Shown here: positions 1,209-28,841 of the stretch, one piece after another | Layout: each line of letters starts with the position of its first letter | How positions within the stretch are numbered: the first letter of the stretch is position 1 | Sequence record: MN655998.1 | Origin: Escherichia phage E26 | DNA: 64,000 nucleotides | Reading direction: 5' to 3' (one strand) | The notes under the pieces: model-generated | The model's input: only the letters and a program-made list of their open reading frames with translations | Databases searched by the model: none | What the model was told of the DNA's origin: nothing | Program-made: the position numbers and the translations under genes

Positions 1209-1237
1209 AGTATAGGGGATCGCGAGATCCCCGTCAA
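1209..1237 (-). promoter_or_regulatory. sigma70-type early promoter (TTGACG-N17-TATACT), palindromic GATC-containing spacer
   Basis: Minus-strand -35 at 1232-1237, -10 at 1209-1214; spacer GGGGATCTCGCGATCCCC is an inverted repeat. Confidence 0.6.
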
Positions 1238-1241
1238 GCAT

Positions 1242-1769
1242 TTATTTTAAATTTTTTCGAATGTATTCAGACCATTCCTTCCCTGTCAGTTCGGTCCCAT
1301 TCTGGAAACTGAAATATTCATACGGCATCGAGTCAAGATAAAACAGGATCATACATCGCGCCATATAATACCAATCACGATTAAAGTAAACTACGTTATC
1401 TCCAGTACCATCAGCACCTTTATCATAACCATCGCGGGTACGGGCGACCCATTGAATGGTATCATTTTTCTCACGGATAGTAACAGGTTCCCAATATCCA
1501 GCACACCCAGCATGACCACACGAACAAGTAAGGAAATATTGACCTTTTGCTTTGTTGTCATCCCATTCACGATGGATTGGTTTGATCTCGTGAAACAGTG
1601 CCAAACAATCATGATTATGCAACACTGGCTTACCATCAATCAATGCATGGAATGTATACAAACGACCCGTAGACAAATAGCTATCCTCACGCTCAACCAG
1701 TTCAATAGCAATCTTTTTAGCTCGTTCTTTGTGTCGTTGTGCTTTACGTTTACGGTTTAATGATTTCAT
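1242..1769 (-). CDS. hypothetical protein
   Basis: ORF with ATG at 1769 and GAGGTGA RBS; track start is GTG two codons upstream. Confidence 0.55.
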   Translation of the reverse strand: MKSLNRKRKAQRHKERAKKIAIELVEREDSYLSTGRLYTFHALIDGKPVLHNHDCLALFHEIKPIHREWDDNKAKGQYFLTCSCGHAGCAGYWEPVTIREKNDTIQWVARTRDGYDKGADGTGDNVVYFNRDWYYMARCMILFYLDSMPYEYFSFQNGTELTGKEWSEYIRKNLK

Positions 1770-1786
1770 AGTCACCTCACATTATT

Positions 1787-2326
1787 TCAAAGATCGCGAT
1801 ATTGTACATTATGAAAATGAGAACTTGCATTACCAATATTGTAGATAACAAATTCTTCATCCGGCGCTTGCGCTACAAATTGAGTATGAGCAACCGCCAC
1901 AACCTTAAAAATACGATCCGTGATCTTGTGTTTAATTTCTGCCCCTACTTCCATAGGAACATATTCATTTGTTTCTGTTTCAGTCGCAAAACAGCCATCT
2001 TCTTCATAAGCACGAACAAATCGGTCGCAATCAGTACGCTTAACAAATTCAAGAGTATATAATTCTCGTGAATTGTCGGTATAGACCAATACAGAATTAT
2101 TATGATAGCGAATCACATACAGGTTATTATCATCGTCAATTACACAAAAGCTACGGATTCCTTCGCCTTGACTCCAGCAGACATTAACCACCGTTCCTCT
2201 AATAAAAAAACTTTCCTTTAAATTAAAACTAGTCAATGTGCTAGCGTGCATTTTAACAACAACACCATCGCCAATTTCCAGTTTACGAAGTTTAACTTCT
2301 TTGCTCAGTACACAAAACATCATCAT
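1787..2326 (-). CDS. hypothetical protein
   Basis: ORF with ATG at 2326 and GAGAGGA RBS, directly downstream of a promoter cassette. Confidence 0.55.
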   Translation of the reverse strand: MMMFCVLSKEVKLRKLEIGDGVVVKMHASTLTSFNLKESFFIRGTVVNVCWSQGEGIRSFCVIDDDNNLYVIRYHNNSVLVYTDNSRELYTLEFVKRTDCDRFVRAYEEDGCFATETETNEYVPMEVGAEIKHKITDRIFKVVAVAHTQFVAQAPDEEFVIYNIGNASSHFHNVQYRDL

Positions 2327-2355
2327 GTTGTCCTCTCGTTGTTTTCGATGTGAGC

Positions 2356-2383
2356 ATTATACATTAGCTAATCAGGTTGTCAA
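2356..2383 (-). promoter_or_regulatory. sigma70-type early promoter (TTGACA-N16-TATAAT)
   Basis: Minus-strand -35 at 2378-2383, -10 at 2356-2361; immediately follows a terminator hairpin (PeSL-like arrangement). Confidence 0.65.
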
Positions 2384-2389
2384 CACCCA

Positions 2390-2420
2390 AAAACGAAAAA
2401 GCCGACCCTTTCGGATCGGC
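2390..2420 (-). terminator. rho-independent terminator after nrdD
   Basis: GC hairpin GCCGATCCGAAAGGGTCGGC followed by U-run on minus strand. Confidence 0.7.
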
Positions 2421-2426
2421 TGAAAA

Positions 2427-4289
2427 TTACATGTGCTTAACGCGGTTTACCATCTCGGAGTGTTTCCCGTGGTTGAATGGACGCAGATCAACAGATCCAA
2501 GATATCCACTAACGCGACGGATAACATTCATCTTTTCCAGATTGTCGTTGCCGCAATCAGGACAAACAAAACCAGACTCGGTCGCTCTCATTTCCTTATT
2601 AGATCCGCATACATGACATACATCAGAAGGAGTATTAACACCGAAGTAGTGCAATTTATCCATTGCATAGTCTACTACAGTTTCAAGACCTTTCAGGTTG
2701 TTTTTCATGTCTGGGAACTCAACATAAGAGATCATGCCACCGGACGCCAGCCAGTGATAATCTTTCTCAAAGTCGATTTTCTCAAATGGTGTGACTTTCC
2801 GGTCTACGTCAAGGTGGAATGAGTTGGTGTACCAGTCTTTATCGGTAGCACCCTTAACAATACCAAATTGCTCTCGATCCAGTCGATTAAATCGATAGCA
2901 AAGGCTCTCGGCTGGCGTACCGTAAAGACTAAACCCAAGTCCGGTTTCATCCTTCCATTTTTCAGTATAATGACGCAAGATCTTAAGAATATGTTTACCG
3001 TATCGCTGCGCATCTTCCGAATCAAACGGATGAACACCAAACAGGACGCTCAATACCTCATGTAAACCAATATATCCAAGAGAGATACTAGCGCGACCAT
3101 CTTTCAACACTTCCAAAATTTCATCGTTTTGATGAATACGGAAAAATGCACCTTCTGTATACAGCACCGGAGCAACATTGGCTTTAGCGCCTTTTAAAGC
3201 GTCTACGCGACTCATGAGCGCATCAAAGCAAATAGGCATACGATTGGCTAGCTCTTGTTCGAATAGCTCAATTCTGCGCATTACAGACGCTTTACCAGCA
3301 CGAAGCGCGGCAATAAGGGCAATACGCGGAAGATTCAGAGTCACAACACCTAAGTTATTACGTCCGTCTAATACTTCTTCGCCTTTCTCATTATGCCACA
3401 CACCCAGGAAGCTACGACAACCCATCGGGCTAACCGGAACACTAGATCCAGTGATGCTACGGTTATTCTTCGCAGAGATATAATCAGGGTAAAGACGCTT
3501 ACTAGAACATTCCAATGCAAGTTGCTTAATGTCGTAGTTCGGATCTTCCGGTTTAAGGTTTAATCCTTCTTCTAAGAACATCACCAGCTTAGGAAACACC
3601 GGAGTTATACCATCTTTACCTAAACCTTTAGTTCGAACTTTCAGGATCGCTTTCTGAATCAGTTTTTCTTCCCAGCTAGTACCCATACCAAAGGTTAAAG
3701 TCACAAAAGGCGTTTGACCGTTGGTGGAGAACAAAGTGTTGATTTCATATTCCAACGCTTGATACCCGTCTAAAGTTTCTTTTTCTGTCTTCTCTTGTGC
3801 ATAGAGAGTATCAGCTTTGATTCCGTAGGTTTCGGCATCAGCAAGGTGTTTATGATATGTTTTCTCAACGTATGGCGCTAAAACCTGATCGATGTTTGCA
3901 ATTGTGGTCCCGCCATATTGATGACTTGCCACCTGTGCGATAATTTGAGCGGTTACAGCACAAGCAACGCCGATTGATTTCGGACTTTCGATTTGTGCGC
4001 TACCCAATTTAAAACCATTCTCTAACATGTCTTTGAGATTAACAAGACAGCAGTTAGTAAACGGCATAGCGGGTGCATAATCCATATCATGATAATGAAT
4101 ATCACCGTCTACATGCGCTTTATAGATGTGCTCAGGTAACACGGTTTTAGCAATCTGTTTAGACACAGCACCAGCAATCAGATCTCGACGTGTCGGGAAT
4201 GTTCGCGCGTCTTTGTTCGCGTTCTCTTTGCTTACTTCGTTTTCTTTACCCGTTGCGATCTCTGTAATGTCTTTGATTAGTTTTTCCAT
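2427..4289 (-). CDS. nrdD: anaerobic ribonucleoside-triphosphate reductase NrdD (glycyl radical enzyme)
   Basis: 620 aa; C-terminal zinc ribbon (CHVCGS...CPDCG) and glycyl radical motif RVSGYLG; ATG at 4289 with AGGTGA RBS. Confidence 0.95.
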   Translation of the reverse strand: MEKLIKDITEIATGKENEVSKENANKDARTFPTRRDLIAGAVSKQIAKTVLPEHIYKAHVDGDIHYHDMDYAPAMPFTNCCLVNLKDMLENGFKLGSAQIESPKSIGVACAVTAQIIAQVASHQYGGTTIANIDQVLAPYVEKTYHKHLADAETYGIKADTLYAQEKTEKETLDGYQALEYEINTLFSTNGQTPFVTLTFGMGTSWEEKLIQKAILKVRTKGLGKDGITPVFPKLVMFLEEGLNLKPEDPNYDIKQLALECSSKRLYPDYISAKNNRSITGSSVPVSPMGCRSFLGVWHNEKGEEVLDGRNNLGVVTLNLPRIALIAALRAGKASVMRRIELFEQELANRMPICFDALMSRVDALKGAKANVAPVLYTEGAFFRIHQNDEILEVLKDGRASISLGYIGLHEVLSVLFGVHPFDSEDAQRYGKHILKILRHYTEKWKDETGLGFSLYGTPAESLCYRFNRLDREQFGIVKGATDKDWYTNSFHLDVDRKVTPFEKIDFEKDYHWLASGGMISYVEFPDMKNNLKGLETVVDYAMDKLHYFGVNTPSDVCHVCGSNKEMRATESGFVCPDCGNDNLEKMNVIRRVSGYLGSVDLRPFNHGKHSEMVNRVKHM

Positions 4290-4333: not shown

Positions 4334-4828
4334 TTATTTTACCAGTTCTGCTAATTCTTTTTCCGCCGCTTCCAGTTCAGCTTTAAGCTGTTTAATCTCT
4401 TGTCGCTTCTTATTAGCGGCTTCCTGCTTACTATTTCGGATAACCTGATCTAGATACAACTCCCAATCCTGAATATTTTTGATAATGTAGCCGTCAACAT
4501 TAATTGGTCGTAGATTCAGTACAGCTTCCAGTTTAGTCGCAAAAACTTTAATTGCTGGTGTGAAGTATTCATATTCGTTATCTTCAAACCAATAACCTAG
4601 ACTTGCATTATCAATACGAAGACGAAGTTCAAGATCAAGGTCTTTATCTTCGGTGTAAAGATCTTTCACCTGACCCAGCGAACTAACAACAACTTTAAAA
4701 CGAATTTTATCTACACCACCAAACACATCAGTAAGTATACCAGCAATTGAGCTATTAGCGCAAGATTGGTCGCTGAATGCGTCAAGGTTTTCTTTAGTTA
4801 CAGTATACCAAACATCTTGTACCCACAT
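4334..4828 (-). CDS. hypothetical protein
   Basis: ORF with ATG at 4828 and GAGAGGA RBS, behind a promoter cassette. Confidence 0.55.
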   Translation of the reverse strand: MWVQDVWYTVTKENLDAFSDQSCANSSIAGILTDVFGGVDKIRFKVVVSSLGQVKDLYTEDKDLDLELRLRIDNASLGYWFEDNEYEYFTPAIKVFATKLEAVLNLRPINVDGYIIKNIQDWELYLDQVIRNSKQEAANKKRQEIKQLKAELEAAEKELAELVK

Positions 4829-4858
4829 AATATAATCCTCTCGTTGTTAAGTGGGAGT

Positions 4859-4886
4859 ATTATAGCATACTCCCTTCGCATGTCAA
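4859..4886 (-). promoter_or_regulatory. sigma70-type early promoter, -10 inside a hairpin loop
   Basis: TTGACA (4881-4886) N16 TATAAT (4859-4864); GGGAGTA/TACTCCC stem encloses the -10. Confidence 0.6.
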
Positions 4887-6061
4887 GCACTAACTTTTTT
4901 CTTTACTGCTTTCACCTTCTGGCGAATTGCTCGAATCTCTTCGATCTCTTTTTCAGTATCTTTAACAATTTCTTTGCGATTCTGAATATCTTTATCGAGA
5001 TTATCATCAAGTTTAGGCAGCATGTCAATCAAGAACTTTTTAAGGTCTTTCAGGTTGCGAATAACAGTACCTTCACCCATTACCGCCACACCTACACCGT
5101 CCGGCAGATCACCAAACAGTTTAACCAGTTCAGACAGATGATCATGATCTTCTAGTGCTTCTTCCGGTTCAGATGGCAGTTCAACAAAGTTATAACGTTC
5201 ATCATTGCTGATCAAGTGATACCAGCAAAGCCCGAAAGATTTCGGTGTATATTCTACACCATCAATTTCAACCGCGTCAACACTTCCATAATCATCTACT
5301 TTAGTTACCTTAAATCCTTGTCCCAGCTTTTGAACAATTTCAACAACATGACTTGATACAGTTTCAGCGGTAAACCAATATGGCAAATTATGCTGATTTG
5401 GCTTGTAGCGTTCACCTACTTTAAATCTCTGACCATCCGCTTGCATAGAATGAAATTGTTGTTTCGTGATTTCCGCGAAGTATTCAAATTCGCTACCGTC
5501 AAACAAGCAATTCCATTGATCACAAAAACGATCCGCCTTAACAGTTTCACCTTTCGCGGTGATCATGGTAGCTGATCCGTGCAATTCTTCTTCAACTAAA
5601 AAGCCATATTCGACAAAATCAACAAGTTTCATAGCTTCTTTGTGATCTGGATCATGCTCTCCCCAGAATCGCTTAAATTCTTGCAAACCTTCTGGTGTAA
5701 ACGAATAACATTTACCTTTTTCAAAGTAAGTCGGCATTGCATCCTCTTTCTTGTTCATCGCTTCGTATGCCTCTTTTGAGATGCGTTTAAAGTATTTACG
5801 CTCATCGTGCATAATCATAGTAGCCCAATAATAAACGATATCCTCAGCGGAATAAACTACATCTCCAGCTTCAATAGTAATAACATGACCGTTGTCATCT
5901 TTTTCTAATACTTTAAAGCCCTTTTCGACGATTTCAGCAACCCGAATATGACCACGGCGCGAAGCATCGGTCAGAATAATTGAATAGCGAGAAAAGTCTA
6001 GAAACTCATCTTTACCACCTTCACGGAATGCATAGTAATGACCTTCAAAGAATTTAGCCAT
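4883..6061 (-). CDS. hypothetical protein, paralog family A (two copies of a shared domain)
   Basis: 392 aa; shares ERKYFKRIxK and GFKV(L/T) motifs with the next two ORFs; ATG at 6061. Confidence 0.6.
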   Translation of the reverse strand: MAKFFEGHYYAFREGGKDEFLDFSRYSIILTDASRRGHIRVAEIVEKGFKVLEKDDNGHVITIEAGDVVYSAEDIVYYWATMIMHDERKYFKRISKEAYEAMNKKEDAMPTYFEKGKCYSFTPEGLQEFKRFWGEHDPDHKEAMKLVDFVEYGFLVEEELHGSATMITAKGETVKADRFCDQWNCLFDGSEFEYFAEITKQQFHSMQADGQRFKVGERYKPNQHNLPYWFTAETVSSHVVEIVQKLGQGFKVTKVDDYGSVDAVEIDGVEYTPKSFGLCWYHLISNDERYNFVELPSEPEEALEDHDHLSELVKLFGDLPDGVGVAVMGEGTVIRNLKDLKKFLIDMLPKLDDNLDKDIQNRKEIVKDTEKEIEEIRAIRQKVKAVKKKVSA

Positions 6062-6092
6062 AATATAATCCTCTAGTTGTTTAAATGGGAGT

Positions 6093-6121
6093 ATCTTACT
6101 ACTCCCGTTTCATCATGTCAA
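6093..6121 (-). promoter_or_regulatory. sigma70-type early promoter, -10 inside a hairpin loop
   Basis: TTGACA (6116-6121) N17 TAAGAT (6093-6098); GGGAGTA/TACTCCC stem around the -10. Confidence 0.6.
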
Positions 6122-6124
6122 GTG

Positions 6125-6685
6125 TTAAAGTGACTTTTGGATCTCTTTCAGTTCAGCTACTTTATCGGCGCTGAATTTAGCGTAGGTATCATGTCGAATA
6201 ATTTCACTTTCAAGAAAGGTTTCCAGCCGAGATCTATTTTCAATAAGGAACTCTTTCAGGTCTTCCGCGTTCTTGATAAAGATTTTATTGTCAGTAATGT
6301 CATCTTCAATCGCAAAGGAGATAGAGCGAACTTTACCAAACAAGTTAATCAGATCTTCCAGAGATTCTTCTTTCTTAACTGGTTTCATTTCTTCAAACTG
6401 CTTTTTAGTGATGCGTTTAAAGTATTTGCGCTCGCTTGCATCAATCATGATTGACGCACCCTCATAATCATGAGTTTCTACCAAATACACTTTACCCATA
6501 ACATTAACCGTAAGAACTTTAAAGCCCCTGTGAAGCACACCATACAGGAACTTGTTATGTTGTGGATAGCGTTTAACAAATTCCTCTGCGGACTCAGCAT
6601 TACGGAAAGTGTAATAACGACCTCGTTCAAAAACAGCATCATTTGAAGACTTAGCTGGATACAATTTATACGTTTTCTGTACCAT
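6125..6685 (-). CDS. hypothetical protein, paralog family A
   Basis: ATG at 6685 with AGAGGA RBS (track start further upstream lacks RBS); ERKYFKRITK and GFKVL motifs shared with 4883..6061. Confidence 0.55.
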   Translation of the reverse strand: MVQKTYKLYPAKSSNDAVFERGRYYTFRNAESAEEFVKRYPQHNKFLYGVLHRGFKVLTVNVMGKVYLVETHDYEGASIMIDASERKYFKRITKKQFEEMKPVKKEESLEDLINLFGKVRSISFAIEDDITDNKIFIKNAEDLKEFLIENRSRLETFLESEIIRHDTYAKFSADKVAELKEIQKSL

Positions 6686-6699: not shown

Positions 6700-6972
6700 T
6701 CATTTCACTAATTGAACAGCACGAAACAGAATGCGGTCACACGGAAGAAGCATAAATTCCCAACGCGGATCAAAGTCTTTAGCGGTATATGTTTTCCCAT
6801 CAACCGAGATTTCACTTACATAACCAATAGGTGACACTTTAAGAACAGTAAATCCATTCTTGATGACTTCGTAGGTATCTTTCAAACCTTCGTAGTCATC
6901 CTCTAAGAAGTCTTTACGTGCTTGCTCAGATTTAAAAACATAGGCAACACCGGATTTAAACATCTTACGCAT
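6700..6972 (-). CDS. hypothetical protein, paralog family A (single domain)
   Basis: 90 aa; GFTVLKV motif resembles N-terminal domain of neighbours; ATG at 6972 with AAGGAG RBS. Confidence 0.5.
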   Translation of the reverse strand: MRKMFKSGVAYVFKSEQARKDFLEDDYEGLKDTYEVIKNGFTVLKVSPIGYVSEISVDGKTYTAKDFDPRWEFMLLPCDRILFRAVQLVK

Positions 6973-7003
6973 TGTTGATTCTCCTTCTTGATTAGATGGG
7001 AGT

Positions 7004-7032
7004 ATTTTACTACTCCCATTTCATGCTGTCAA
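7004..7032 (-). promoter_or_regulatory. sigma70-type early promoter, -10 inside a hairpin loop
   Basis: TTGACA (7027-7032) N17 TAAAAT (7004-7009); GGGAGTA/TACTCCC stem. Confidence 0.6.
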
Positions 7033-7035
7033 CTA

Positions 7036-7509
7036 CTATCTTAATCTTTGTATAAATTGTTTCTTATACTTCTTCGTGATCTCTTCTCTTGTATCAGCGT
7101 CACAATAATCGAAACCTTCTGCGTCCATAATAGCAACCATCTCCGCGCGTGTCAAGCGTGAAAATCGTTTTACTTTATCAACAGCATATTGAGGATGTAA
7201 ATGATTGTTGGTGTAGTCTCCTTTGATGTAATTAACATAGTTTGTCGCCCAAACAACGAAATCAGCACCTAAAGCACCAACACCAAACCGTTTAAAGTCT
7301 CCGGTCAACGATCCTTCTAGGCGGTTGCAACACGAATGAAGCAATCCCCTTACGCGGCCTTGCCCTTTACCATCTAGATCGTGGTCGTGGTCAAGATGGT
7401 TTTTGCTCATATCCTCAAAAAGTGGCAATTGACAAAGGGGGCAAATGCCCCCCTGTTTTTCGAATAGTTCTTGTTTGTACTCTTTAGCACTCTTAGCAGT
7501 CAGTAACAT
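7036..7509 (-). CDS. 49: endonuclease VII (Holliday junction resolvase, T4 gp49-like)
   Basis: Cys-rich zinc motif and HLDHDH motif recalled from T4 endonuclease VII; ATG at 7509 with GGAGGG RBS (track start is TTG). Confidence 0.85.
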   Translation of the reverse strand: MLLTAKSAKEYKQELFEKQGGICPLCQLPLFEDMSKNHLDHDHDLDGKGQGRVRGLLHSCCNRLEGSLTGDFKRFGVGALGADFVVWATNYVNYIKGDYTNNHLHPQYAVDKVKRFSRLTRAEMVAIMDAEGFDYCDADTREEITKKYKKQFIQRLR

Positions 7510-9885: not shown

Positions 9886-10194
9886 TTATTTCACGTTAAC
9901 GCCGCCATCAATCCAGCCGACGCTATTTGGTTTAACAGTTTTACCATAGGATGCATACTTAATCAAGCATGGTTTAACATCATTATCAAATCTTCCTAAG
10001 CGTACTCCCAAATCAGGAATATCCATGTAAGCGGCTTTATATCCCCATGTACAATATTCAGCATCAATCTCAACCGGACGGCCTTTAAAAGCATACACTA
10101 CACCGTAACGGTCAACGATAACATAGCGATAGCCAGCCGGAAGATACACAGTTTCGCCGTAAACTTTAACTGGAGTAGCAGAAGAGATAAACAT
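9886..10194 (-). CDS. hypothetical protein
   Basis: ORF with ATG at 10194, first gene behind promoter at 10229-10257. Confidence 0.5.
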   Translation of the reverse strand: MFISSATPVKVYGETVYLPAGYRYVIVDRYGVVYAFKGRPVEIDAEYCTWGYKAAYMDIPDLGVRLGRFDNDVKPCLIKYASYGKTVKPNSVGWIDGGVNVK

Positions 10195-10228
10195 AATATA
10201 TTCCTCACATCGTTCATTTGATGCGGCT

Positions 10229-10257
10229 ATTATAGGATAACCGCATTTTCATGTCAA
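10229..10257 (-). promoter_or_regulatory. sigma70-type early promoter (TTGACA-N17-TATAAT)
   Basis: Minus-strand -35 at 10252-10257, -10 at 10229-10234. Confidence 0.6.
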
Positions 10258-10263
10258 CAGTTT

Positions 10264-10572
10264 TTAAAAATCTTCTTCCGGTTTATATCGACCGTCGTCT
10301 TCTTGTTTTGGGCTGAATCCGGTATGTTTGCGCGGCTTCGCTTCCGGTTTACCCGCAATCATCAAACCAAAACATTTCAGCCCCTTATAACACATAACAA
10401 TATAAACTACTGTCCACGTTATAGGCCAGATGATTGCGGCAATACAAAATGCTCCTGTATCGACCTCTTTCGTGTCCTTATCGAATCTGGCATACAAGCA
10501 GAATATAAGATACGAGATCATTGCACCCGTAGGCCAGATATAAAGCACATTAACAATATCTTGTGTTGTCAC
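10264..10572 (-). CDS. hypothetical membrane protein
   Basis: Hydrophobic segments; probable GTG start at 10572 five nt after in-frame AAGGAGG, just past upstream stop; start uncertain. Confidence 0.4.
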   Translation of the reverse strand: MTTQDIVNVLYIWPTGAMISYLIFCLYARFDKDTKEVDTGAFCIAAIIWPITWTVVYIVMCYKGLKCFGLMIAGKPEAKPRKHTGFSPKQEDDGRYKPEEDF

Positions 10573-10582: not shown

Positions 10583-10861
10583 TTACATGTCTTGCAGTGC
10601 GTAGAAGCATTTTTCTTCATAGTCATAGAAAATGTCAAAGTATGCTTTTTCTACATACTCGCCATTGATCCAAGCGGCAGTAACAATCAGGGTAGTCCAG
10701 TTAGATCCGCTCTCAACGGTAAAGGTTTTAATACCCAGCTTCACAGCAAGGTCACGCGCAAACTGGTCGCAACCACGGCAGGAAGTGATATTGGAAGTTT
10801 TGATTTTGATGCCACCGCGAGTTTTAGAAATTTCTACTTTAGCGAAAGACAGGTTGCTCAT
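10583..10861 (-). CDS. hypothetical protein
   Basis: ATG at 10861 preceded by AAGGAGAATCAAA leader. Confidence 0.5.
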   Translation of the reverse strand: MSNLSFAKVEISKTRGGIKIKTSNITSCRGCDQFARDLAVKLGIKTFTVESGSNWTTLIVTAAWINGEYVEKAYFDIFYDYEEKCFYALQDM

Positions 10862-10904
10862 TTTGATTCTCCTTAAGAAAAGTGTGTTTCGTTTTGATGT
10901 GTGT

Positions 10905-10933
10905 AGTATAGGGGATACGCGATCCCCTGTCAA
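10905..10933 (-). promoter_or_regulatory. sigma70-type early promoter (TTGACA-N17-TATACT), palindromic spacer
   Basis: Spacer GGGGATCGCGTATCCCC inverted repeat containing GATC. Confidence 0.6.
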
Positions 10934-10948
10934 CAACTTTTTATGATT

Positions 10949-11507: not shown

Positions 11508-11764
11508 CACAGATTCCTCAACCAGTTATTAAAGCGAGCAAACCATGATGCTTTTCGTGCTTCTTTTACTTTATGTGCACGAAAACCACTGAAACACCAT
11601 TCATAATCATCACCGAAACATGATTCAACAGGAACACCCGCATTTCGTAGTTCTCTGGTCTTTATCATGAATCCTTGACATAAGGGTCGACCTTCAACAA
11701 TGATAGGAAGTTTAACTTTTTCCATGAAAGTATACCCAGCACGGTCAATAATTTCAATCTTCAT
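11507..11764 (-). CDS. hypothetical protein, paralog family B
   Basis: MKIEIID...PIIVEGR...AGVP motif shared with 11783..11980 and 14329..14550. Confidence 0.5.
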   Translation of the reverse strand: MKIEIIDRAGYTFMEKVKLPIIVEGRPLCQGFMIKTRELRNAGVPVESCFGDDYEWCFSGFRAHKVKEARKASWFARFNNWLRNL

Positions 11765-11782
11765 AATATAATCCTCAATTAG

Positions 11783-11980
11783 TTATACCGCCCAGGCTTC
11801 ATTTGCACGAAAACACCATTCATACTCAGGAAAATAACCTTTAATTGGCACGCCAGCTTTTTGTAGTTCCTGCGTTTCTACAAGATAATCAAGCCCATAA
11901 CGACGACCTTCCACGATGATAGGAAGTTTAACGCCATTCATGAAAGAAAATCCACCATCATCAATAATTTCAATTTTCAT
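11783..11980 (-). CDS. hypothetical protein, paralog family B
   Basis: N-terminal MKIEIIDxxG(F/Y)xFM motif shared with adjacent ORF. Confidence 0.5.
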   Translation of the reverse strand: MKIEIIDDGGFSFMNGVKLPIIVEGRRYGLDYLVETQELQKAGVPIKGYFPEYEWCFRANEAWAV

Positions 11981-12224
11981 TTACATTGTCTCCATAGATC
12001 TTTCCAGCAATATCAATTTCACCAGCGCGAACATCTAGGATAAGATGCGGTAGGTGTATGCAGTTTTCCCACCCTACGCGCTTCATTTCTTCTACGGTAA
12101 CGTAAGCCCACCCGTTCGCTGTAATAAAGTCTACTTCAACCTTGAGAGGAAAGCAAGACTTTTCTATGTCTTCGAATCCGACAATATGTTTTGTTGTTGA
12201 ATATGGAATATATCCGGTGATCAT
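11970..12224 (-). CDS. hypothetical protein
   Basis: ORF with ATG at 12224. Confidence 0.45.
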   Translation of the reverse strand: MITGYIPYSTTKHIVGFEDIEKSCFPLKVEVDFITANGWAYVTVEEMKRVGWENCIHLPHLILDVRAGEIDIAGKIYGDNVNEN

Positions 12225-12655
12225 TTTGTGATCTCCTTATACTCAACACACCATAAGCGGGTAGCCCATGATAAACGCTCATAACGCTGGCAGAAATCGG
12301 ACCATAGATATTGTGTACCGTCTTGCATAGTTGAAATATGCGTTTTCTCTCCTACTTTCACGAAAGAAGTATTCGATTTTGTGATCTCGACAGGAGTATA
12401 TCCGAAAGCTGGTTCCAAGTCAACATCTGAACTAAATGCCAATTTAACAGAATTTGTTTTTCTGACCGCTGTCCGGTTTCCTTCTGGGTATAGCACAGCA
12501 GGTTTAGCGCCTAAGCGGATAAACTCAGTATTTTTAATGAACAGAATATCATGATAACCGTCATATTCCGACACTTCCATAGTAACAGGAAAATCGATAT
12601 GTGCTAAACCTGGTAGATCTCGCATGTCATGAAATGTAGCCATCAACTTTTTCAT
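12221..12655 (-). CDS. hypothetical protein, paralog family C
   Basis: C-terminal VEITKSNTSFVKVGEKTHI...LSWA segment duplicated in 12666..12911. Confidence 0.5.
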   Translation of the reverse strand: MKKLMATFHDMRDLPGLAHIDFPVTMEVSEYDGYHDILFIKNTEFIRLGAKPAVLYPEGNRTAVRKTNSVKLAFSSDVDLEPAFGYTPVEITKSNTSFVKVGEKTHISTMQDGTQYLWSDFCQRYERLSWATRLWCVEYKEITK

Positions 12656-12665
12656 TTTGTATTCC

Positions 12666-12911
12666 TCACTCTTCTGTAATTACTTCATATTCAATTTTCC
12701 ATACATCAATCGCCCAGCTTAAAAGCTCATACGATTTACAGAAAGATGACCAAATATACTGTTTTCCGTGCATCGTTGTTATGTGTGTACGCTCGCCAAC
12801 CTCAACGAAAGACATATTTGACTTTGTGATAACTATAGGAATGCGACCGAAAGCTGGCGGTATTACTGATTCGTTGGTCTTCATTCTATGTTCCTCACTC
12901 TTCTGTTTCAT
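12666..12911 (-). CDS. hypothetical protein, paralog family C
   Basis: Shares ITKSNMSFVEVGERTHI and LLSWA motifs with 12221..12655. Confidence 0.5.
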   Translation of the reverse strand: MKQKSEEHRMKTNESVIPPAFGRIPIVITKSNMSFVEVGERTHITTMHGKQYIWSSFCKSYELLSWAIDVWKIEYEVITEE

Positions 12912-13131: not shown

Positions 13132-13393
13132 TACATGCTTTTAATGCATCAGTCGCGGTGTCATAGCGAGTATTATCATAGCACCAGTAACCATCTGTCA
13201 ACTGATAAATTAATCCATCCTTTTTAGCTTCGATGAAAGATAACTCTTTGAAAGTTTCTACTTTCTTTACGGATACTCCACGGTCACGGCGCTCATAGAG
13301 TTTAGCTAAAATGCGTTCAGCTTGTTCCTCTTTATCACCAGACAGATCCCAAATAATGTTGCGGATATGTTTGATTAATTGTTCAGCGGTCAT
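13103..13393 (-). CDS. hypothetical protein
   Basis: ATG at 13393 preceded by AAGGAGAATCAAAG leader. Confidence 0.5.
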   Translation of the reverse strand: MTAEQLIKHIRNIIWDLSGDKEEQAERILAKLYERRDRGVSVKKVETFKELSFIEAKKDGLIYQLTDGYWCYDNTRYDTATDALKACNDHLRKTTI

Positions 13394-13422
13394 CTTTGAT
13401 TCTCCTTAGTTGGTATGTGTGC

Positions 13423-13450
13423 ATTATAGCACTATGATTTTCATTGTCAA
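13423..13450 (-). promoter_or_regulatory. sigma70-type early promoter (TTGACA-N16-TATAAT)
   Basis: -35 at 13445-13450, -10 at 13423-13428; preceded by terminator hairpin. Confidence 0.65.
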
Positions 13451-13455
13451 CACCC

Positions 13456-13487
13456 AAAAAACAAAAAGGCTATCCCGAAGGATAGCC
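13456..13487 (-). terminator. rho-independent terminator
   Basis: Hairpin GGCTATCC-CGAA-GGATAGCC followed by U-run on minus strand. Confidence 0.7.
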
Positions 13488-13494
13488 CATAAAA

Positions 13495-14274
13495 TTACAC
13501 GCGAGCACCGTAGATCGTGCCTACTTTATCCCAGCGAGGGGCATTGCCAGTAACAGCCTTACCAGCCGCACCGCCATTATATTCCGATCCCTGTCCACGG
13601 ATATTACATTTACCACCAGCACCGCCAGCATCACCACCGTTACCGCCATTATATACACCGTTGACAGACCCTTTACCTGGCGCGGAAATAGTACCAGCAG
13701 TAGCACCCCGTTCCATATTAGCAGACCCACCGGCAGCACCAAACGGACGCCCACCACCACCGCCAAAGGTTAATCTCATTTGTGAAAAAGGAGAATAATA
13801 CCCACCGCCGCCACCACCACCGCCACCACAAATAGCGCCGTTATTTGTGATGCGTAAGCGTGTGCCTATACCGTTGTTAATTGCATTACCACCAGCACCA
13901 CCAGCGGAGTTATTGCCACCATTACCACCACGCCCCCAAACATGAACACCGGGGTTAATGATCAATGTTACATATTCGTTTGTTAACGAGCTAGGGAAGT
14001 CAAGACAAGGAACGCCAGTAGATTGGGAAACAATATTACCCGTGATAGTAATTACTACAGGAGTAGACCCTTGTGCTTTCATCCAGTTAATAAGAGTGTC
14101 TTTATTGTAAGAGTTACTAGCACCAATGCTATAATGAATCTCTTTAGAGCGTCCGACCATTGCCGACATATACGCCGGACGACCTAAGCGTACAGCTTGC
14201 ATTGCGGCGCTCATCCACCGTTGACCAGTCTCGGACACCGCAGATGATCCTACCCATCCAGAAGATATTGCCAT
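13495..14274 (-). CDS. glycine-rich repeat protein of unknown function
   Basis: 259 aa; C-terminal two-thirds dominated by GGxGG/GGNGG repeats, making the DNA locally GC-rich; ATG at 14274 with GAGGAAA RBS. Confidence 0.6.
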   Translation of the reverse strand: MAISSGWVGSSAVSETGQRWMSAAMQAVRLGRPAYMSAMVGRSKEIHYSIGASNSYNKDTLINWMKAQGSTPVVITITGNIVSQSTGVPCLDFPSSLTNEYVTLIINPGVHVWGRGGNGGNNSAGGAGGNAINNGIGTRLRITNNGAICGGGGGGGGGYYSPFSQMRLTFGGGGGRPFGAAGGSANMERGATAGTISAPGKGSVNGVYNGGNGGDAGGAGGKCNIRGQGSEYNGGAAGKAVTGNAPRWDKVGTIYGARV

Positions 14275-14290
14275 AAAATTTCCTCACAAG

Positions 14291-14310: not shown

Positions 14311-14328
14311 ATTGATTGATAATATTAC

Positions 14329-14550
14329 TTAGATGACCTCGGCTTCACCATCCAGGAAGAAAGACCATGTTTTGTTAGGATAGCGAAGCGCCCAAGATTC
14401 GGCAGTCTTAACACCAGCTTCGAACAATTGACGGCTGGTTACTTTAGCCATACCATCTTCGATGGCAACGTTTTCAATAATCATCGGGTACTTAGCGCCA
14501 CGCATGAAACCGAAACCAGCGGAAGATTTGATAATTTTAACAGTTGCCAT
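14329..14550 (-). CDS. hypothetical protein, paralog family B
   Basis: KIIKSSAGFGFM...PMIIE...AGV resembles 11507..11980 pair. Confidence 0.5.
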   Translation of the reverse strand: MATVKIIKSSAGFGFMRGAKYPMIIENVAIEDGMAKVTSRQLFEAGVKTAESWALRYPNKTWSFFLDGEAEVI

Positions 14551-14593
14551 TTTTTTGATTCTCCTAGAAAGTGTATCTCGTTTCGATGGATGT

Positions 14594-14622
14594 ATTATGC
14601 ATTAACACCGGATCGCTGTCAA
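14594..14622 (-). promoter_or_regulatory. sigma70-type early promoter (TTGACA-N17-CATAAT)
   Basis: -35 at 14617-14622, -10 at 14594-14599; conserved ATCGAAACGA leader downstream. Confidence 0.6.
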
Positions 14623-14640
14623 CACTTTCTAAGAAAAATT

Positions 14641-15607: not shown

Positions 15608-15806
15608 TCTTCACGGTCTCCATAATTGTTTTGTAAGCCAGTTTAAGATGATCACCGAAAAACTTTGCAGTGTTACCATTCGGATCGCGGAGCATGGTTT
15701 CTACGATCTCATCGGCAGTAACAATTTCTCCTTTCTTTGCTGCATGTTCTACCATATACTTCAAAGTTTCTTCGGAAGCAAGTGCTGCGGCTACTGGATT
15801 AATCAT
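15597..15806 (-). CDS. hypothetical protein
   Basis: ATG at 15806 preceded by AAGGAGAATCAAA leader. Confidence 0.5.
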   Translation of the reverse strand: MINPVAAALASEETLKYMVEHAAKKGEIVTADEIVETMLRDPNGNTAKFFGDHLKLAYKTIMETVKNAK

Positions 15807-15835
15807 TTTGATTCTCCTTTGTTGTCGATGTGTGC

Positions 15836-15864
15836 ATTATGCTATACCCTATTCCGGTTGTCAA
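15836..15864 (-). promoter_or_regulatory. sigma70-type early promoter (TTGACA-N17-CATAAT)
   Basis: -35 at 15859-15864, -10 at 15836-15841; preceded by terminator hairpin. Confidence 0.65.
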
Positions 15865-15869
15865 CACCT

Positions 15870-15900
15870 AAAAACAAAAAAGCCACCCTTTCGGATGGCT
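15870..15900 (-). terminator. rho-independent terminator
   Basis: Hairpin AGCCACCC-TTTC-GGATGGCT followed by U-run on minus strand. Confidence 0.65.
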
Positions 15901-16133
15901 TTTGATTATATTTTATTCACGTCCATTTGTATAGTAGTGTTTGAATCGACCTTTGCTAAACTAGTTAAACATAGTAACCAATTCACCATCCCTTTCCAAT
16001 GATAACCCTTCCTCGTCTTAGACGGGTCTTCCGATTCGGCAGTAATTGAACACGCGAAAGTATGAGGAAACCAAATAGTTGTGTTAATGCTAGTATTCTT
16101 TTACTTATGGTATGCATCCCACGGTGACTAACA

Positions 16134-24868: not shown

Positions 24869-25066
24869 CTAAAATTTGTTAACGACGAATTGCATAATTA
24901 GACTAATCATAAACATTGCAAACCAAGTATAAATGCAACAGATAAAAGCTACATACAATTCAATCTGGTCAGAGAATACACCGGGTAAAAGCATTAGCAA
25001 AATAACAACAGTAAAGACGCTAGCGATACCCGCAACAAAACCAATATCATTTTTACTAATCGTCAT
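24869..25066 (-). CDS. small hydrophobic membrane protein
   Basis: ATG at 25066 overlapping upstream stop (ATGA); hydrophobic. Confidence 0.4.
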   Translation of the reverse strand: MTISKNDIGFVAGIASVFTVVILLMLLPGVFSDQIELYVAFICCIYTWFAMFMISLIMQFVVNKF

Positions 25067-25263
25067 CAAGTCACCGTTTTGTAAAGAAACACAATAAAAT
25101 CCAAGACAAGAAAGACAGTGTAAATGATCATCGTCAAGACAGTAAACACTGTCAGATTTTCATCGTTAGTTAATTCATAGTCGCCCATCCATACAATAAC
25201 AAGATATAGCATTGAAAGAATGGAAGCACCTACGAAGTTAAAAAACATATTCTTGAGCGTCAT
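25066..25263 (-). CDS. small hydrophobic membrane protein
   Basis: ATG at 25263 one nt past upstream stop; hydrophobic. Confidence 0.4.
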   Translation of the reverse strand: MTLKNMFFNFVGASILSMLYLVIVWMGDYELTNDENLTVFTVLTMIIYTVFLVLDFIVFLYKTVT

Positions 25264-25455: not shown

Positions 25456-25782
25456 TTAGAAAGAAACAGTTTTCAAGAAATCCAGATTTTCAGTACCGAA
25501 AACAGAAAAGTAGTGTTTTCCTTTTTCGGTTTTAGAGAAAGCGATTGTCTTCTCTACATGGTGACGGAAGCCAGACAGACGATCACCCAGGTCAAGGCGG
25601 CAAGCGTAAGTAGTACCGTCTTCGAAAGTAACCTCGATTTGAGTTTTGTCATATTCGCTTTCATAGGCTTTTTCTGCCGCTTCCAGTGCTTTACGCTCGA
25701 AGTCTTCGAAGTGGAATACTTCGTTTGCGTTAGCGAATACAGAAGATTCAGAGAAGATAACTTTAACAGATACTGGTTTCAT
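25456..25782 (-). CDS. hypothetical protein
   Basis: ATG at 25782 behind AGGAGTATCAAA leader and promoter cassette. Confidence 0.5.
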   Translation of the reverse strand: MKPVSVKVIFSESSVFANANEVFHFEDFERKALEAAEKAYESEYDKTQIEVTFEDGTTYACRLDLGDRLSGFRHHVEKTIAFSKTEKGKHYFSVFGTENLDFLKTVSF

Positions 25783-25824
25783 TTTGATACTCCTTAGTAG
25801 TTCGTGTTTCGTTTCGATGGGTGT

Positions 25825-25853
25825 ATTATGCTATACACCCTCTCGTGTGTCAA
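25825..25853 (-). promoter_or_regulatory. sigma70-type early promoter (TTGACA-N17-CATAAT), -10 in hairpin
   Basis: -35 at 25848-25853, -10 at 25825-25830; GGGTGTA/TACACCC stem around -10. Confidence 0.6.
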
Positions 25854-25861
25854 CAACTTTT

Positions 25862-26050
25862 TTAGTCTTTTTTCATAATTTCTAGAGCAGTTTCTACAGC
25901 ACCTTTCCAACCCTCCCACATAATGGACATAGTAATGAAGTTAAAGCACCCGCAGGAATCAACCTTTTTAGATATAAACCACTCTACAAACGCTTCGCTC
26001 ATACCATGCTCTTTAGCTGATTCGCGTAATTGTTCAATTTGGTCTTCCAT
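25862..26050 (-). CDS. hypothetical small protein
   Basis: ORF with ATG at 26050. Confidence 0.4.
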   Translation of the reverse strand: MEDQIEQLRESAKEHGMSEAFVEWFISKKVDSCGCFNFITMSIMWEGWKGAVETALEIMKKD

Positions 26051-26059
26051 AGTATCACC

Positions 26060-26248: not shown

Positions 26249-26257
26249 ATTACCCCC

Positions 26258-26485
26258 TTATAGTTGATCAGCAATGTATGCGGTGCATTTGCGGAGTTTA
26301 GCCATAGCACCACCTTTCATGTCGCTTACGCCTACAATGTTCATGATCTCTAAGCGATCAGCCGGATTCAGTCTAGTAGCCCAGATCTGGTTAGCCAGTT
26401 CCATTTTACCCATCTGCGGTTCCATCTCAAACAGTTCGCGCTCAAAGTCGATAATTTCTTTTGCTGCGTCTTTAAAGTTAATCAT
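26258..26485 (-). CDS. hypothetical small protein
   Basis: ATG at 26485 preceded by GGGAGAATCAAA leader. Confidence 0.45.
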   Translation of the reverse strand: MINFKDAAKEIIDFERELFEMEPQMGKMELANQIWATRLNPADRLEIMNIVGVSDMKGGAMAKLRKCTAYIADQL

Positions 26486-26514
26486 TTTGATTCTCCCGTT
26501 TCGTTGATGGTTGT

Positions 26515-26543
26515 ATTGTAGGGGAGTTATCCTCCCCTGTCAA
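26515..26543 (-). promoter_or_regulatory. sigma70-type early promoter (TTGACA-N17-TACAAT), palindromic spacer
   Basis: Spacer GGGGAGGATAACTCCCC is a near-perfect inverted repeat. Confidence 0.55.
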
Positions 26544-26551
26544 CACTTTTA

Positions 26552-26737
26552 TCAGAAATATGCAATATAGTTTGCCAGTCCTACAGAGTCATCATTCGGC
26601 ATTGCTTTTACTGCCAGTTCAAACCCTGCTTCAACTTTCTGTTTAGCGGATTCTTCGTTATAACCCCAGATTACCAGAATAGCTACTACGTTTTCTTTGC
26701 TTACTGCTTTCAGTGCTTTAGTGATGCGACGTGCCAT
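26552..26737 (-). CDS. hypothetical small protein
   Basis: ORF with ATG at 26737 behind GGAGAATCAA leader. Confidence 0.4.
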   Translation of the reverse strand: MARRITKALKAVSKENVVAILVIWGYNEESAKQKVEAGFELAVKAMPNDDSVGLANYIAYF

Positions 26738-26783
26738 AATTTGATTCTCCGTTTAAGAAAGTGTGTTTCGTTTCGATGGGTGT

Positions 26784-26812
26784 ATTATGCTATAGGCCGG
26801 ATCTGGTGTCAA
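26784..26812 (-). promoter_or_regulatory. sigma70-type early promoter (TTGACA-N17-CATAAT)
   Basis: -35 at 26807-26812, -10 at 26784-26789; spacer contains GATC. Confidence 0.6.
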
Positions 26813-26837
26813 CAACTTTTTTAAAAAAATTTTAGGC

Positions 26838-26866
26838 AATAAAAAAGCCACTCCGAAGAGTGGCTT
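26838..26866 (-). terminator. rho-independent terminator
   Basis: Hairpin AGCCACTC-TTCG-GAGTGGCT followed by U-run on minus strand. Confidence 0.7.
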
Positions 26867-27015
26867 ATAGGGAAGGTAGCGAATCTTCCTTGTCTCCAAC
26901 CTGCTAGCGGCCTAGCAAGTGAATGCTTTAGCGTACCGGATCGCCCACATACGCTGTAATAAATGCGGCTAGGTGACGTCCAAATCATTCTAACCGCGCT
27001 GTCTTTAGTTCACTG

Positions 27016-27234
27016 TTATTTATATCGCTTTCTCTCGCGACGTTTTTGATCTTCTTCCTTGATAGAGTTAAACGCATCAAAAAGACACATGACACTGATA
27101 ATGAACATAACCGTATTTTCTACGATATCCCACGGCTTCGCATCAGTACAGATCCCCCAAACGGTAAGAAATGCAAATAATGCAGAAGAGATCACAAGCA
27201 TGATACTTGCTAAGATATAAAAAGTCATTTTCAT
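27016..27234 (-). CDS. small hydrophobic membrane protein
   Basis: 72 aa, two hydrophobic helices and basic C-terminus; ATG overlaps upstream stop (ATGA). Confidence 0.4.
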   Translation of the reverse strand: MKMTFYILASIMLVISSALFAFLTVWGICTDAKPWDIVENTVMFIISVMCLFDAFNSIKEEDQKRRERKRYK

Positions 27235-28128: not shown

Positions 28129-28137
28129 ATTATCACC

Positions 28138-28295
28138 TTATTTGCTAATCGCTAAACCCAATCCGAAGAGAGCACCCGACGCTACAGTATACCCGAAAGT
28201 TTCAAATGCAGTAAAGATATCCAACCCACCAGCTAACAGAGTTGCAGTAAACAGAGTACCAGCTACGAACATAAAAGTTTTACCGATAAATTTCA
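28138..28295 (-). CDS. small hydrophobic membrane protein (52 aa)
   Basis: ATG at 28295 behind AAGGAGAATCAAG leader and promoter; below ORF-track cutoff. Confidence 0.45.
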
Positions 28296-28327
28296 TCTTG
28301 ATTCTCCTTTCGTTTGTTTGTGGGGGT

Positions 28328-28356
28328 ATCTTACTACCCCCGTTTCATGTTGTCAA
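28328..28356 (-). promoter_or_regulatory. sigma70-type early promoter, -10 inside a hairpin loop
   Basis: TTGACA (28351-28356) N17 TAAGAT (28328-28333); GGGGGTA/TACCCCC stem. Confidence 0.6.
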
Positions 28357-28363
28357 CTATTTT

Positions 28364-28741
28364 TTAAGAATATTTTACTTCGTCTACAATGTCTTTCATG
28401 ACATTGATTTCCATTCCGGTCAGAACACGTTGGAACATGTGCTGCACATACGCTTTCAGGTATTCATTTGATGGCTTGCTATCGAAAGTCTTTTTAGTGT
28501 AGTAGTCATCACCGAAAGCTACTGTAATTACATTTTCGTCGTCGTTCCAAGCGATATAAGCAAATTTGCCGTTATCCCAGAAGCGAGCACTAATTGCTAC
28601 TTTTGTTGAATCGAATCCTACTTCGCTGTGAGATTCAAGAACTACTTGCGTACCAGTTTCTTTATGAATGTAGTAGCGGGATACTAAGTCAAAGTTACGG
28701 GTGTAGTGACATTCGAATTTATCTTTAAACATCATCATCAT
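28364..28741 (-). CDS. hypothetical protein
   Basis: ATG at 28741 behind AGGAGAATCAAA leader; track start lies further upstream. Confidence 0.5.
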   Translation of the reverse strand: MMMMFKDKFECHYTRNFDLVSRYYIHKETGTQVVLESHSEVGFDSTKVAISARFWDNGKFAYIAWNDDENVITVAFGDDYYTKKTFDSKPSNEYLKAYVQHMFQRVLTGMEINVMKDIVDEVKYS

Positions 28742-28778
28742 TTTGATTCTCCTAAGTGTGTTTCGTTTCGATATGTGC

Positions 28779-28807
28779 ATTATGCTATAGTAGTTTATGG
28801 TTGTCAA
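28779..28807 (-). promoter_or_regulatory. sigma70-type early promoter (TTGACA-N17-CATAAT)
   Basis: -35 at 28802-28807, -10 at 28779-28784; preceded by terminator hairpin. Confidence 0.65.
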
Positions 28808-28808
28808 C

Positions 28809-28841
28809 ACCTAAAAACAAAAAACCCCGAAAAATTTTCGG
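28809..28841 (-). terminator. rho-independent terminator after 57B/Acb1
   Basis: Hairpin CCCCGAAAA-TTTTCGGGG followed by long U-run on minus strand. Confidence 0.7.

Follow-up and report, generated by a model that had tools for sequence, protein, structure and literature searches.

Early regulatory cassettes of the promoter-early stem-loop type in the leftward early region of Escherichia phage E26

Results

The early region of Escherichia phage E26 was studied in a stretch of 64,000 nucleotides (nt) of its genome (sequence record MN655998.1), here called the window. Its minus strand carries a family of 17 cassettes, spanning 1164–28844, which combine a sigma-70 promoter, a stem-loop, a leader and a Shine-Dalgarno sequence ahead of a start codon. 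Very probably, they are early regulatory cassettes of the promoter-early stem-loop (PeSL) type, each one ending an early transcript and starting the next. The safest reading of their primary role is in gene expression, as early promoter/terminator/translation-initiation units. Positions are those of the whole window, and the cassettes are named by the first base of their -35 box (Table 1).

When pieces of 12–25 kb of the window were compared by megablast, 45–57 full-length matches were obtained depending on the query, all of them to Krischvirus (RB49-like T4-type coliphages), with identities of 95–97% to RB49, Phi1, GEC-3S, ECD7 and others. The gene order is that of RB49. From 1 to about 31000 there are leftward early genes, including nrdG, nrdD, gene 49, nrdC, dam, gp38, rI, tk, vs, regB, dmd, 57B/57A, gene 1 and gene 3, and from about 33000 there are rightward late baseplate genes, the GC skew changing its sign at that point.

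Identification of the cassette family

A preliminary description of this DNA had proposed a repeated promoter unit in the minus-strand early region, between 1209 and 28841. The repeated units are real. A strict search for TTGACA-N15-19-ATAAT gave 13 matches, compared to 0.59 expected from shuffled sequences; 11 of them fell in the segment 2356–28807 of the minus strand. A profile made from the clear members of the family, run over both strands with a cut-off of E<0.01, gave 18 matches: the 17 minus-strand cassettes and, in the rest of the window, one further match on the plus strand with its -35 box at 41969. A chance origin of these counts was ruled out by the numbers of matches relative to expectation. 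The limits that had been proposed coincide with two cassette elements, the -10 box of the first one and, at the other end, the terminator of the last. As a guard against circularity, each member of the profile was submitted to leave-one-out testing: 16 of the 18 were regained at E<1e-3, 1237 was marginal (E=0.18) and 19662 was missed. So, it can be said that the family has a core of 16 cassettes plus two peripheral members, 1237 and 19662. A 19th, looser element with a layout like that of the cassettes (TTTACA-17-TATAAT) was found on the plus strand at 50978.

All these elements are intergenic and oriented towards the downstream open reading frame (ORF), with the ATG placed 29–46 nt past the -10 box. 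The ORFs downstream of the cassettes correspond to genes of RB49 and GEC-3S. Seventeen of the 19 elements are in the minus-strand early region, where hypothetical ORFs abound, and split about 29 kb of leftward early genes into units with a median of about 1.2 kb.

Concerning sequence similarity within the family, the qualification of the units as near-identical proved to be overstated. Over 70 nt, from -20 to +50 relative to the start of the -35 box, paralogous cassettes showed a mean identity of 57% (range 42–81%), compared to a background of 45%, and the highest values corresponded to sub-families reaching 66–81%. There is a terminator-type sub-family (28807, 15864, 13450, 2383 and the plus-strand 41969), a sub-family with the pattern GGG(G/A)GTAG-TAAnAT (28356, 20507, 7032, 6121) and a long-leader sub-family (26812, 25853, 14622, 10933). 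The 12-mer AGGAGAATCAAA occurs in six exact copies, every one within a cassette, and a form with one mismatch is present in five more.

In the multiple alignment, only TTGAC, two bases of the -10 box (A and T) and the GAG of the Shine-Dalgarno sequence were invariant. So few invariant columns, with a mean column identity of 57%, could be taken as a sign of convergence only, i.e., of strong sigma-70 promoters and ribosome-binding sites that arose independently, without common descent, and look alike through their match to one host consensus. However, the sub-families share long stretches to which no consensus role is known, such as TTTTTGTTTTTAGGTG, preceding the -35 box, tatagCATAATacaccCATCGAAACGAAACACACTT and GGGAGTAGTAAGATACTCCC, with a resulting identity of 70–81% over 70 nt. 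Moreover, when an 88-nt cassette query was run against 50,697 phage records, the 64 records matched were confined to Krischvirus save for seven weak partial matches at 80–90% identity, three of which, the ones listed, were from Cronobacter and Citrobacter phages. The other 57 matched at 90% identity or more, with about 9–12 detectable copies of the cassette per Krischvirus genome. Convergence is thus considered quite improbable as the origin of the family.

Promoter, stem-loops and leader

A near-consensus sigma-70 promoter is present in all 19 elements. The spacer measures 16 nt in three cassettes and 17 nt in the others, and the -10 box is CATAAT, TATAAT or a variant differing by one or two bases. 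The layout proposed beforehand (TTGACA, spacer of 16–17 nt, -10 box, leader and ATG) was borne out across the minus-strand cassettes, with TTGAC(A) as the -35 box. The 20 nt preceding the -35 box have a mean A+T content of 75%, compared to 60% for the region, in agreement with the A/T-rich stretch of PeSLs.

Each cassette contains a single stem-loop. It is placed either upstream, as an intrinsic terminator, or within the promoter, as a G-rich/C-rich hairpin. Considering the 19 elements, there are six upstream terminators, three stems located in the spacer (26543, 10933, 1237) and 9–10 embracing the -10 box (28356, 25853, 20507, 19662, 10257, 7032, 6121, 4886 and the plus-strand 50978, with 14622 doing so weakly). 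These are positions described for PeSLs, and the stem-loops have energies of -7.9 to -20 kcal/mol with the exception of 14622. The core stem-loops range from -7.9 to -13.5 kcal/mol (only -4.7 in 14622), while the six upstream hairpins, followed by a T-run, are canonical intrinsic terminators of -12 to -17 kcal/mol; those of the minus strand finish 13–32 nt ahead of the -35 box. Five of the six terminator-type cassettes are devoid of a meaningful promoter stem, and in 13450 it amounts only to -4.4 kcal/mol. This nearly exclusive distribution suggests that the embedded hairpin serves as the terminator of the upstream transcript.

In the embedded stems the pairing is kept and the letters vary. 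At the fourth pair, 28356 has G-C, 7032 has A-T and 25853 has T-A, and the stem of 10257 differs at several pairs. This covariation was read directly from the sequences; the MAFFT alignment matched the -10 hexamers and left two loop registers out of phase. The 3' arm of the embedded stems stops just short of a conserved CAT, the A of which is the expected transcription start, so the hairpin would be contained in read-through RNA only.

The palindromes coincide with the -10 box or the spacer, precisely where a repressor would act, and this brings up the possibility that they serve as operators, in double-stranded DNA, to which a phage protein binds, for instance an early shut-off factor or a recombination protein. 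The shut-off of T4-type early promoters is incompletely understood (PMC3014915), and Arbiol et al. (PMC2839356) speculate on a protein binding to the GGGG...CCCC motif. Nevertheless, complementarity is conserved and sequence is not, as seen in the stem arms GGGGGTA, GGGAGTA, GGGTGTAT, GCGGTTAT, CCGTTCTCG and CTTTCTG. Also, the stem moves among the spacer, the -10 box and the upstream position, and six cassettes have a terminator in place of a core palindrome, or with only the marginal one of 13450. This variation of the stems, their shifting position and the terminator-only cassettes point to selection on the folded strand rather than on a sequence recognized by a protein, which makes operators a very improbable interpretation of the inverted repeats.

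The leaders are A/C-rich (A 50%, C 22%, T 18%, G 11%) and nearly unstructured, with a folding energy of -0.039 kcal/mol per nt, compared to -0.131 ± 0.072 for random 45-mers of the same strand. A shared leader had been proposed for the whole family. This holds for the five cassettes in which CATCGAAACGAAACAC is recognized with up to three mismatches; elsewhere, what is shared is mostly the CATC(G/A)A start alone.

Two of the hairpins embracing the -10 box, those at 20470–20495 and 28320–28343, when read on the plus strand, precede T-rich sequence and score as terminator-like, so they might stop antisense transcription. On the minus strand, an intrinsic terminator at 21717–21741 is followed by TTTTTCGTTTTATGATG, resembling the start of a terminator-type cassette without a -35 box; it adjoins a homing-endonuclease insertion site and may be a decayed cassette.

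Shine-Dalgarno sequences and putative RegB sites

The sequence GGAG is the Shine-Dalgarno of 13 of the 17 cassette-led genes, whereas among the internal genes of this region it is that of 16 of 63 (Fisher p=3.3e-4). Eight cassettes bear it within GGAGAATCAAA, and GGAGGATAAAT is present at position 42015. The consensus of strong RegB/S1 sites in T4 is GG*AGRAYARAA (Durand et al. 2006, as reviewed in PMC3014915), and GGAGAATCAAA fits it at 10 of 11 positions. When the window was scanned with it, allowing up to one mismatch, 16 matches were obtained versus 8.7 expected; nine were Shine-Dalgarno sequences of cassettes and one was the GGAU of regB itself, which agrees with the GGAU Shine-Dalgarno reported for the regB of RB49 (PMC3014915). 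The Shine-Dalgarno sequences of the cassettes have a mean predicted unpaired probability of 0.54. At the sequence level, the cassettes offer what is proper of RegB/S1 targets: an intergenic, early GGAG, predicted to be unpaired and followed by RAYARAA. RegB is not mentioned in the PeSL paper of Arbiol et al. 2010 (PMC2839356).

A second start motif, (T/A)GAGGATTATATTATG, was found in 13 matches with up to three mismatches (1.1 expected), mostly at operon-internal genes. Its minus-strand sites are at 4826, 6059, 6683, 9065, 10192, 11762, 13090, 18624, 21662, 24845, 30265 and 32167. The TGA of this motif is often also the stop codon of the upstream gene, and one of its copies is at the edge of the replacement at 11764–12880 described below.

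Proposed mode of action

The functioning of the cassettes can be envisaged as follows. The stem-loop would mark the 3' end of the upstream transcript, whether it is an intrinsic terminator or one of the G-rich/C-rich hairpins associated with the spacer and the -10 box. The UP-like A/T stretch and the near-consensus sigma-70 promoter would allow the unmodified host RNA polymerase to fire at once after infection, and transcription would start, as we infer, at the A of the conserved CAT. The leader of 29–46 nt, with its strong Shine-Dalgarno, would favor efficient translation of the first gene. The GGAG, mostly within GGAGAATCAAA, could double as a RegB/S1 site, with the promoter-proximal genes being shut off after the early period. 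Finally, the similarity of 60–80% over 70–100 nt may occasionally be usable as homology for module exchange, in the way published for PeSLs; in this region, such exchange would be a rare by-product rather than the main activity.

Taken together, these steps make of the cassette a module with three functions: GGAGAATCAAA would be both ribosome-binding site and RegB/S1 cleavage site, so that promoter-proximal genes are silenced while internal genes with (T/A)GAGGATTATATTATG mostly escape, and the embedded hairpins would replace terminators. This extended proposal is put forward tentatively, as a possibility somewhat short of even chances. If the link with RegB is true, cuts should occur between G and A of GGAGAATCAAA, and none at GAGGATTATATT sites.

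Several points weigh against this mode of action as a whole. Four cassettes have GAGG instead of GGAG. The RegB consensus derives from T4, whereas the RegB of RB49 is a diverged homologue. The promoter-embedded hairpins lack the U-run of canonical intrinsic terminators, being followed by A/C-rich sequence. In addition, both the start sites and the termination at hairpins devoid of a U-run are deduced from the sequence.

Conservation and rearrangements among relatives

The segment 1–33500 of the window was aligned to RB49, GEC-3S, OZ035808, JK32, JSE, G2248, LF73P4, Brandy and SSG23. The relatives were taken from GenBank; a scan of IMG/VR with RegB returned a single locus, that of phage ECD7. 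In RB49, GEC-3S and OZ035808, where the whole stretch is covered, there were 17 profile matches each, at orthologous sites, and in JK32, JSE and G2248 there were 12 each within the stretch covered, in the same order. Orthologous cassettes are 95.4–97.2% identical, which is indistinguishable from the 94.9–96.6% of their 300-nt flanks.

The cassettes could alternatively be, chiefly, recombination linkers or mobile units that move ORFs by cassette recombination and mini-circles. Mini-circles formed from PeSL to PeSL, and differences between RB49 and phi1 located at PeSLs, have been published (Arbiol et al. 2010, PMC2839356). Also in favor of this role, a 17.6-kb stretch of another hyperplastic region, found in LF73P4, shares with the window only ten cassettes, with 77–87% identity over 55–119 nt. 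However, orthologous cassettes diverge as their flanks do while paralogues average 57% identity, so there is no sign of homogenization or recent movement.

About 11 rearrangements of at least 40 bp were found with respect to the nine relatives, and one or two of them touch a cassette, clearly so in the first of the following events and possibly in the second. In G2248 and LF73P4, the block formed by terminator, gp38, terminator and promoter 13450 (13417–14329) is swapped for a single, different PeSL with its stem in the spacer (TTGACA-CGGGGAGAAATCCCCG-TATAAT), and homology resumes, at the right breakpoint, between the -10 box and +1. This junction is of the kind that Arbiol et al. (PMC2839356) sequenced in mini-circles. 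In LF73P4 (OZ035795.1), the equivalent of 53.5–64 kb of the window is followed by 27 kb of an alternative hyperplastic region and then by the window from 10858 onward, with the junction falling exactly on the start codon after the cassette of the 10933 type. The junction may reflect a genuine rearrangement at a cassette or, alternatively, a mis-join of the assembly; the latter is possible because the LF73P4 assembly is unannotated and its order of segments is unlike that of all the other records.

The other events are homing-endonuclease insertions, operon-internal gains or losses, gene-boundary replacements or an internal gene deletion. Three of them (7830, 21686, 22860) correspond to homing-endonuclease sites at 7830, 21677–21704 and 22851–22871, occupied in some relatives by genes of HNH/AP2 type (525–730 bp) and empty in E26. 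The segment 11764–12880 is a multi-gene replacement with several alternative versions among relatives, its left edge coinciding with a conserved TGAGGATTATATTATG start site. Small gains and losses occur at 18005–18178, 24050 and 25066–25260, and gp38 contains a segment that is hypervariable among relatives. The non-coding sequence at 15905–16133 is a remnant of a gene of about 2.1 kb, intact in JK32, G2248, Brandy and SSG23, which has suffered an internal loss of about 1.95 kb as in RB49. Within the replacement, a 202-bp segment (12677–12880) is present in E26 and absent from RB49, GEC-3S and Brandy.

Two further candidates for cassette-associated events were rejected. One was a cassette-bounded insertion of the 2.1-kb gene beside 15864: the window keeps both ends of this gene, so the gene has lost an internal part and no cassette is involved. 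The other was a breakpoint at 26823, beside cassette 26812, suggested by the end of megablast matches of the SSG23 type; the alignment is colinear through to the end of the fetched locus.

All this makes a chiefly recombinational role of the cassettes rather unlikely. The alignments suggest that PeSL recombination is a minor contributor in this 30-kb early region, leaving the shuffling hypothesis uncontradicted, and that most of the differences in gene content come from homing endonucleases and gene-boundary exchanges.

The plus-strand methyltransferase unit

The preliminary description was right in that a cassette of the same type heads a methyltransferase unit of the plus strand: 41969 is 66–77% identical to the terminator-type members of the minus strand. 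The methyltransferase (Pfam MTS, E=4.5e-10, with an NPPF motif) is preceded by two small ORFs (42027–42601), and the unit ends with a terminator (43445–43466), followed by the late promoter TATAAATA (43481–43488) of gp9. It is a self-contained early unit set among late genes.

The acquisition of this unit through its cassette is part of the linker interpretation considered above. It is consistent with the organization of the unit as a block of terminator, promoter, genes and terminator, and with the 75–77% nucleotide identity of its two small ORFs to a gene pair of unrelated coliphages of about 138 kb, e.g., HMD-6. On the other side, the unit is fixed, being present in all 57 full-length Krischvirus matches, a distribution that is uninformative as to how it was acquired. 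In the 138-kb coliphages, the gene pair follows a different sigma-70-type promoter, and the similarity begins near the transcript start; for the methyltransferase part, the resemblance is to genes of RB43- and KP15-type phages. The unit is a mosaic, of which the cassette is not demonstrably the vehicle.

The looser element at 50978, on the same strand, heads a gene for a SegE-like homing endonuclease (GIY-YIG/NUMOD3; 51037–51933), also located among late genes.

A candidate small RNA

A non-coding stretch of about 170 nt (26845–27015, minus strand) separates the ORF 27016..27234 from cassette 26812, the terminator at 26866–26845 forming its end. It folds into several hairpins, with a minimum free energy of -60.4 kcal/mol (z=-3.2), and is 96–99.4% identical in ten relatives, the changes being clustered in one hairpin loop. 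It is considered a candidate small RNA. No Rfam family was matched in the whole window at gathering thresholds, and no tRNA was found in a tRNA scan.

Table 1. Location and characteristics of the cassettes and associated features in the window
Feature	-35 start	Coordinates	Strand	Characteristics
Terminator-type cassette	28807	28739..28844	-	hairpin 28844-28824 + T-run; CATAAT; long leader ATCGAAACGAAACAC; GGAGAATCAAA; ATG
Cassette	28356	28294..28371	-	stem GGGGGTA/TACCCCC around -10 box (TAAGAT)
Terminator-type cassette	26812	26735..26866	-	hairpin 26866-26845, 32 nt before -35 box; long leader
Cassette	26543	26483..26558	-	stem GGGGAG/CTCCCC within -35/-10 spacer
Cassette	25853	25780..25868	-	stem GGGTGTAT/ATACACCC around -10 box; long leader
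Cassette	20507	20445..20522	-	stem GGGGGTA/TACCCCC around -10 box
Peripheral cassette	19662	19597..19677	-	TTGACT...TATTAT; long weak stem over -10 box; heads vs.1, downstream of regB
Terminator-type cassette	15864	15804..15903	-	hairpin 15903-15878
Cassette	14622	14548..14637	-	long leader; weak stem only, around -10 box
Terminator-type cassette	13450	13391..13488	-	hairpin 13488-13467; downstream of gp38
Cassette	10933	10859..10948	-	spacer stem GGGGAT/ATCCCC; long leader
Cassette	10257	10192..10272	-	stem GCGGTTAT/ATAGCCGC around -10 box; GAGG-type Shine-Dalgarno
Cassette	7032	6970..7047	-	stem GGGAGTA/TACTCCC around -10 box
Cassette	6121	6059..6136	-	stem GGGAGTA/TACTCCC around -10 box; GAGG-type Shine-Dalgarno; unannotated in GEC-3S record
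Cassette	4886	4826..4901	-	stem GGGAGTAT/ATACTCCC around -10 box; GAGG-type Shine-Dalgarno
Terminator-type cassette	2383	2324..2421	-	hairpin 2421-2400; downstream of nrdD
Peripheral cassette	1237	1164..1252	-	TTGACG...TATACT; spacer stem GGGGATC/GATCCCC
Terminator-type cassette	41969	41927..42029	+	hairpin 41927-41956 closes gp8 transcript; heads three-gene early unit among late baseplate genes
Early unit		42027..43488	+	ORF 85 aa, ORF 109 aa, methyltransferase 279 aa
Looser PeSL-like promoter	50978	50978..51039	+	TTTACA-17-TATAAT; 14-bp stem 50984-51022 around -10 box
regB endoribonuclease gene		19685..20107	-	product is the proposed trans-acting partner of the cassette GGAG module; own Shine-Dalgarno GGAU (20107-20117)

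Comparison with known systems

PeSLs were defined in RB49 and phi1 by Arbiol et al. 2010 (PMC2839356), with an anatomy that matches that of the E26 cassettes. These authors distinguished five sub-classes by the position of the stem-loop, and counted 51 PeSLs in RB49 and 52 in phi1, mostly in hyperplastic regions before ORFans. Promoter and terminator activities were demonstrated with lacZ fusions for PeSL193/192, 206/205 and 211/210 of RB49/phi1 (PMC2839356). The stem signature of RB49/phi1 was summarized as G-run/loop/C-run by Comeau et al. 2014 (PMC4122927) and the early promoter consensus of RB49 is reported to be in agreement with mapped 5' ends (Desplats et al. 2002, as cited by Nolan et al. 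2006). E26 belongs to the same genus, with about 96% nucleotide identity, and its cassettes show the same A/T-rich stretch, sigma-70 boxes, G-run/C-run stem-loop, Shine-Dalgarno and ATG, in intergenic positions before small ORFs of hyperplastic regions. All the sequence-level features of PeSLs are thus present, as the preliminary description had anticipated, and support the assignment of the E26 cassettes to this published class. There is no essential difference, except that here the cassettes are positionally stable in nine relatives and seldom found at breakpoints; the published RB49/phi1 loci supported shuffling more strongly than the present stretch does.

The interpretation being correct and PeSLs being already published, this is a rediscovery: a reading of the raw sequence without tools recovered, and correctly named, a known class of phage regulatory elements. 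The refinements provided by the present analysis are a class-by-class map of this genome, the nearly mutual exclusion of stem-loop and terminator, the positional stability of the cassettes across Krischvirus with a divergence equal to that of their flanks, the greater share of homing endonucleases and gene-boundary exchanges than of PeSL recombination in the gene-content differences of this region, and a possible link to RegB. They leave the accepted picture unchanged. In the GenBank record of GEC-3S (HE978309), promoter, -35, -10 and terminator features are annotated at 16 of the 17 orthologous minus-strand sites, with the equivalent of cassette 6121 being missed, and without the concept of a family.

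Concerning less related systems, lambdoid morons and integron gene cassettes also contain genes with their own promoter and terminator between other transcription units, similarly to the methyltransferase unit between gp8 and gp9. The cassettes described here differ in being devoid of integrase or attC-type site, and their exchange would rely on general homologous recombination of the T4 type. The likeness to the RegB/S1 sites of T4 consists of a GGAG in the Shine-Dalgarno of early genes, an A-rich tail and the presence of regB; the difference is that RB49 has a diverged RegB and that the sites of the cassettes are putative, by match to the consensus. Finally, the early promoters of T4, and the PeSL-like elements at the IP loci of T-even phages, are likewise strong early promoters for the host polymerase with a UP-like A-rich stretch, many of them preceding small non-essential ORFs. 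In T4, the consensus combines GTTTAC at -35 with an extended -10 box, and the stem-loops are weaker and A/T-rich, whereas the E26 cassettes are characterized by TTGACA/TATAAT boxes and G/C stems.

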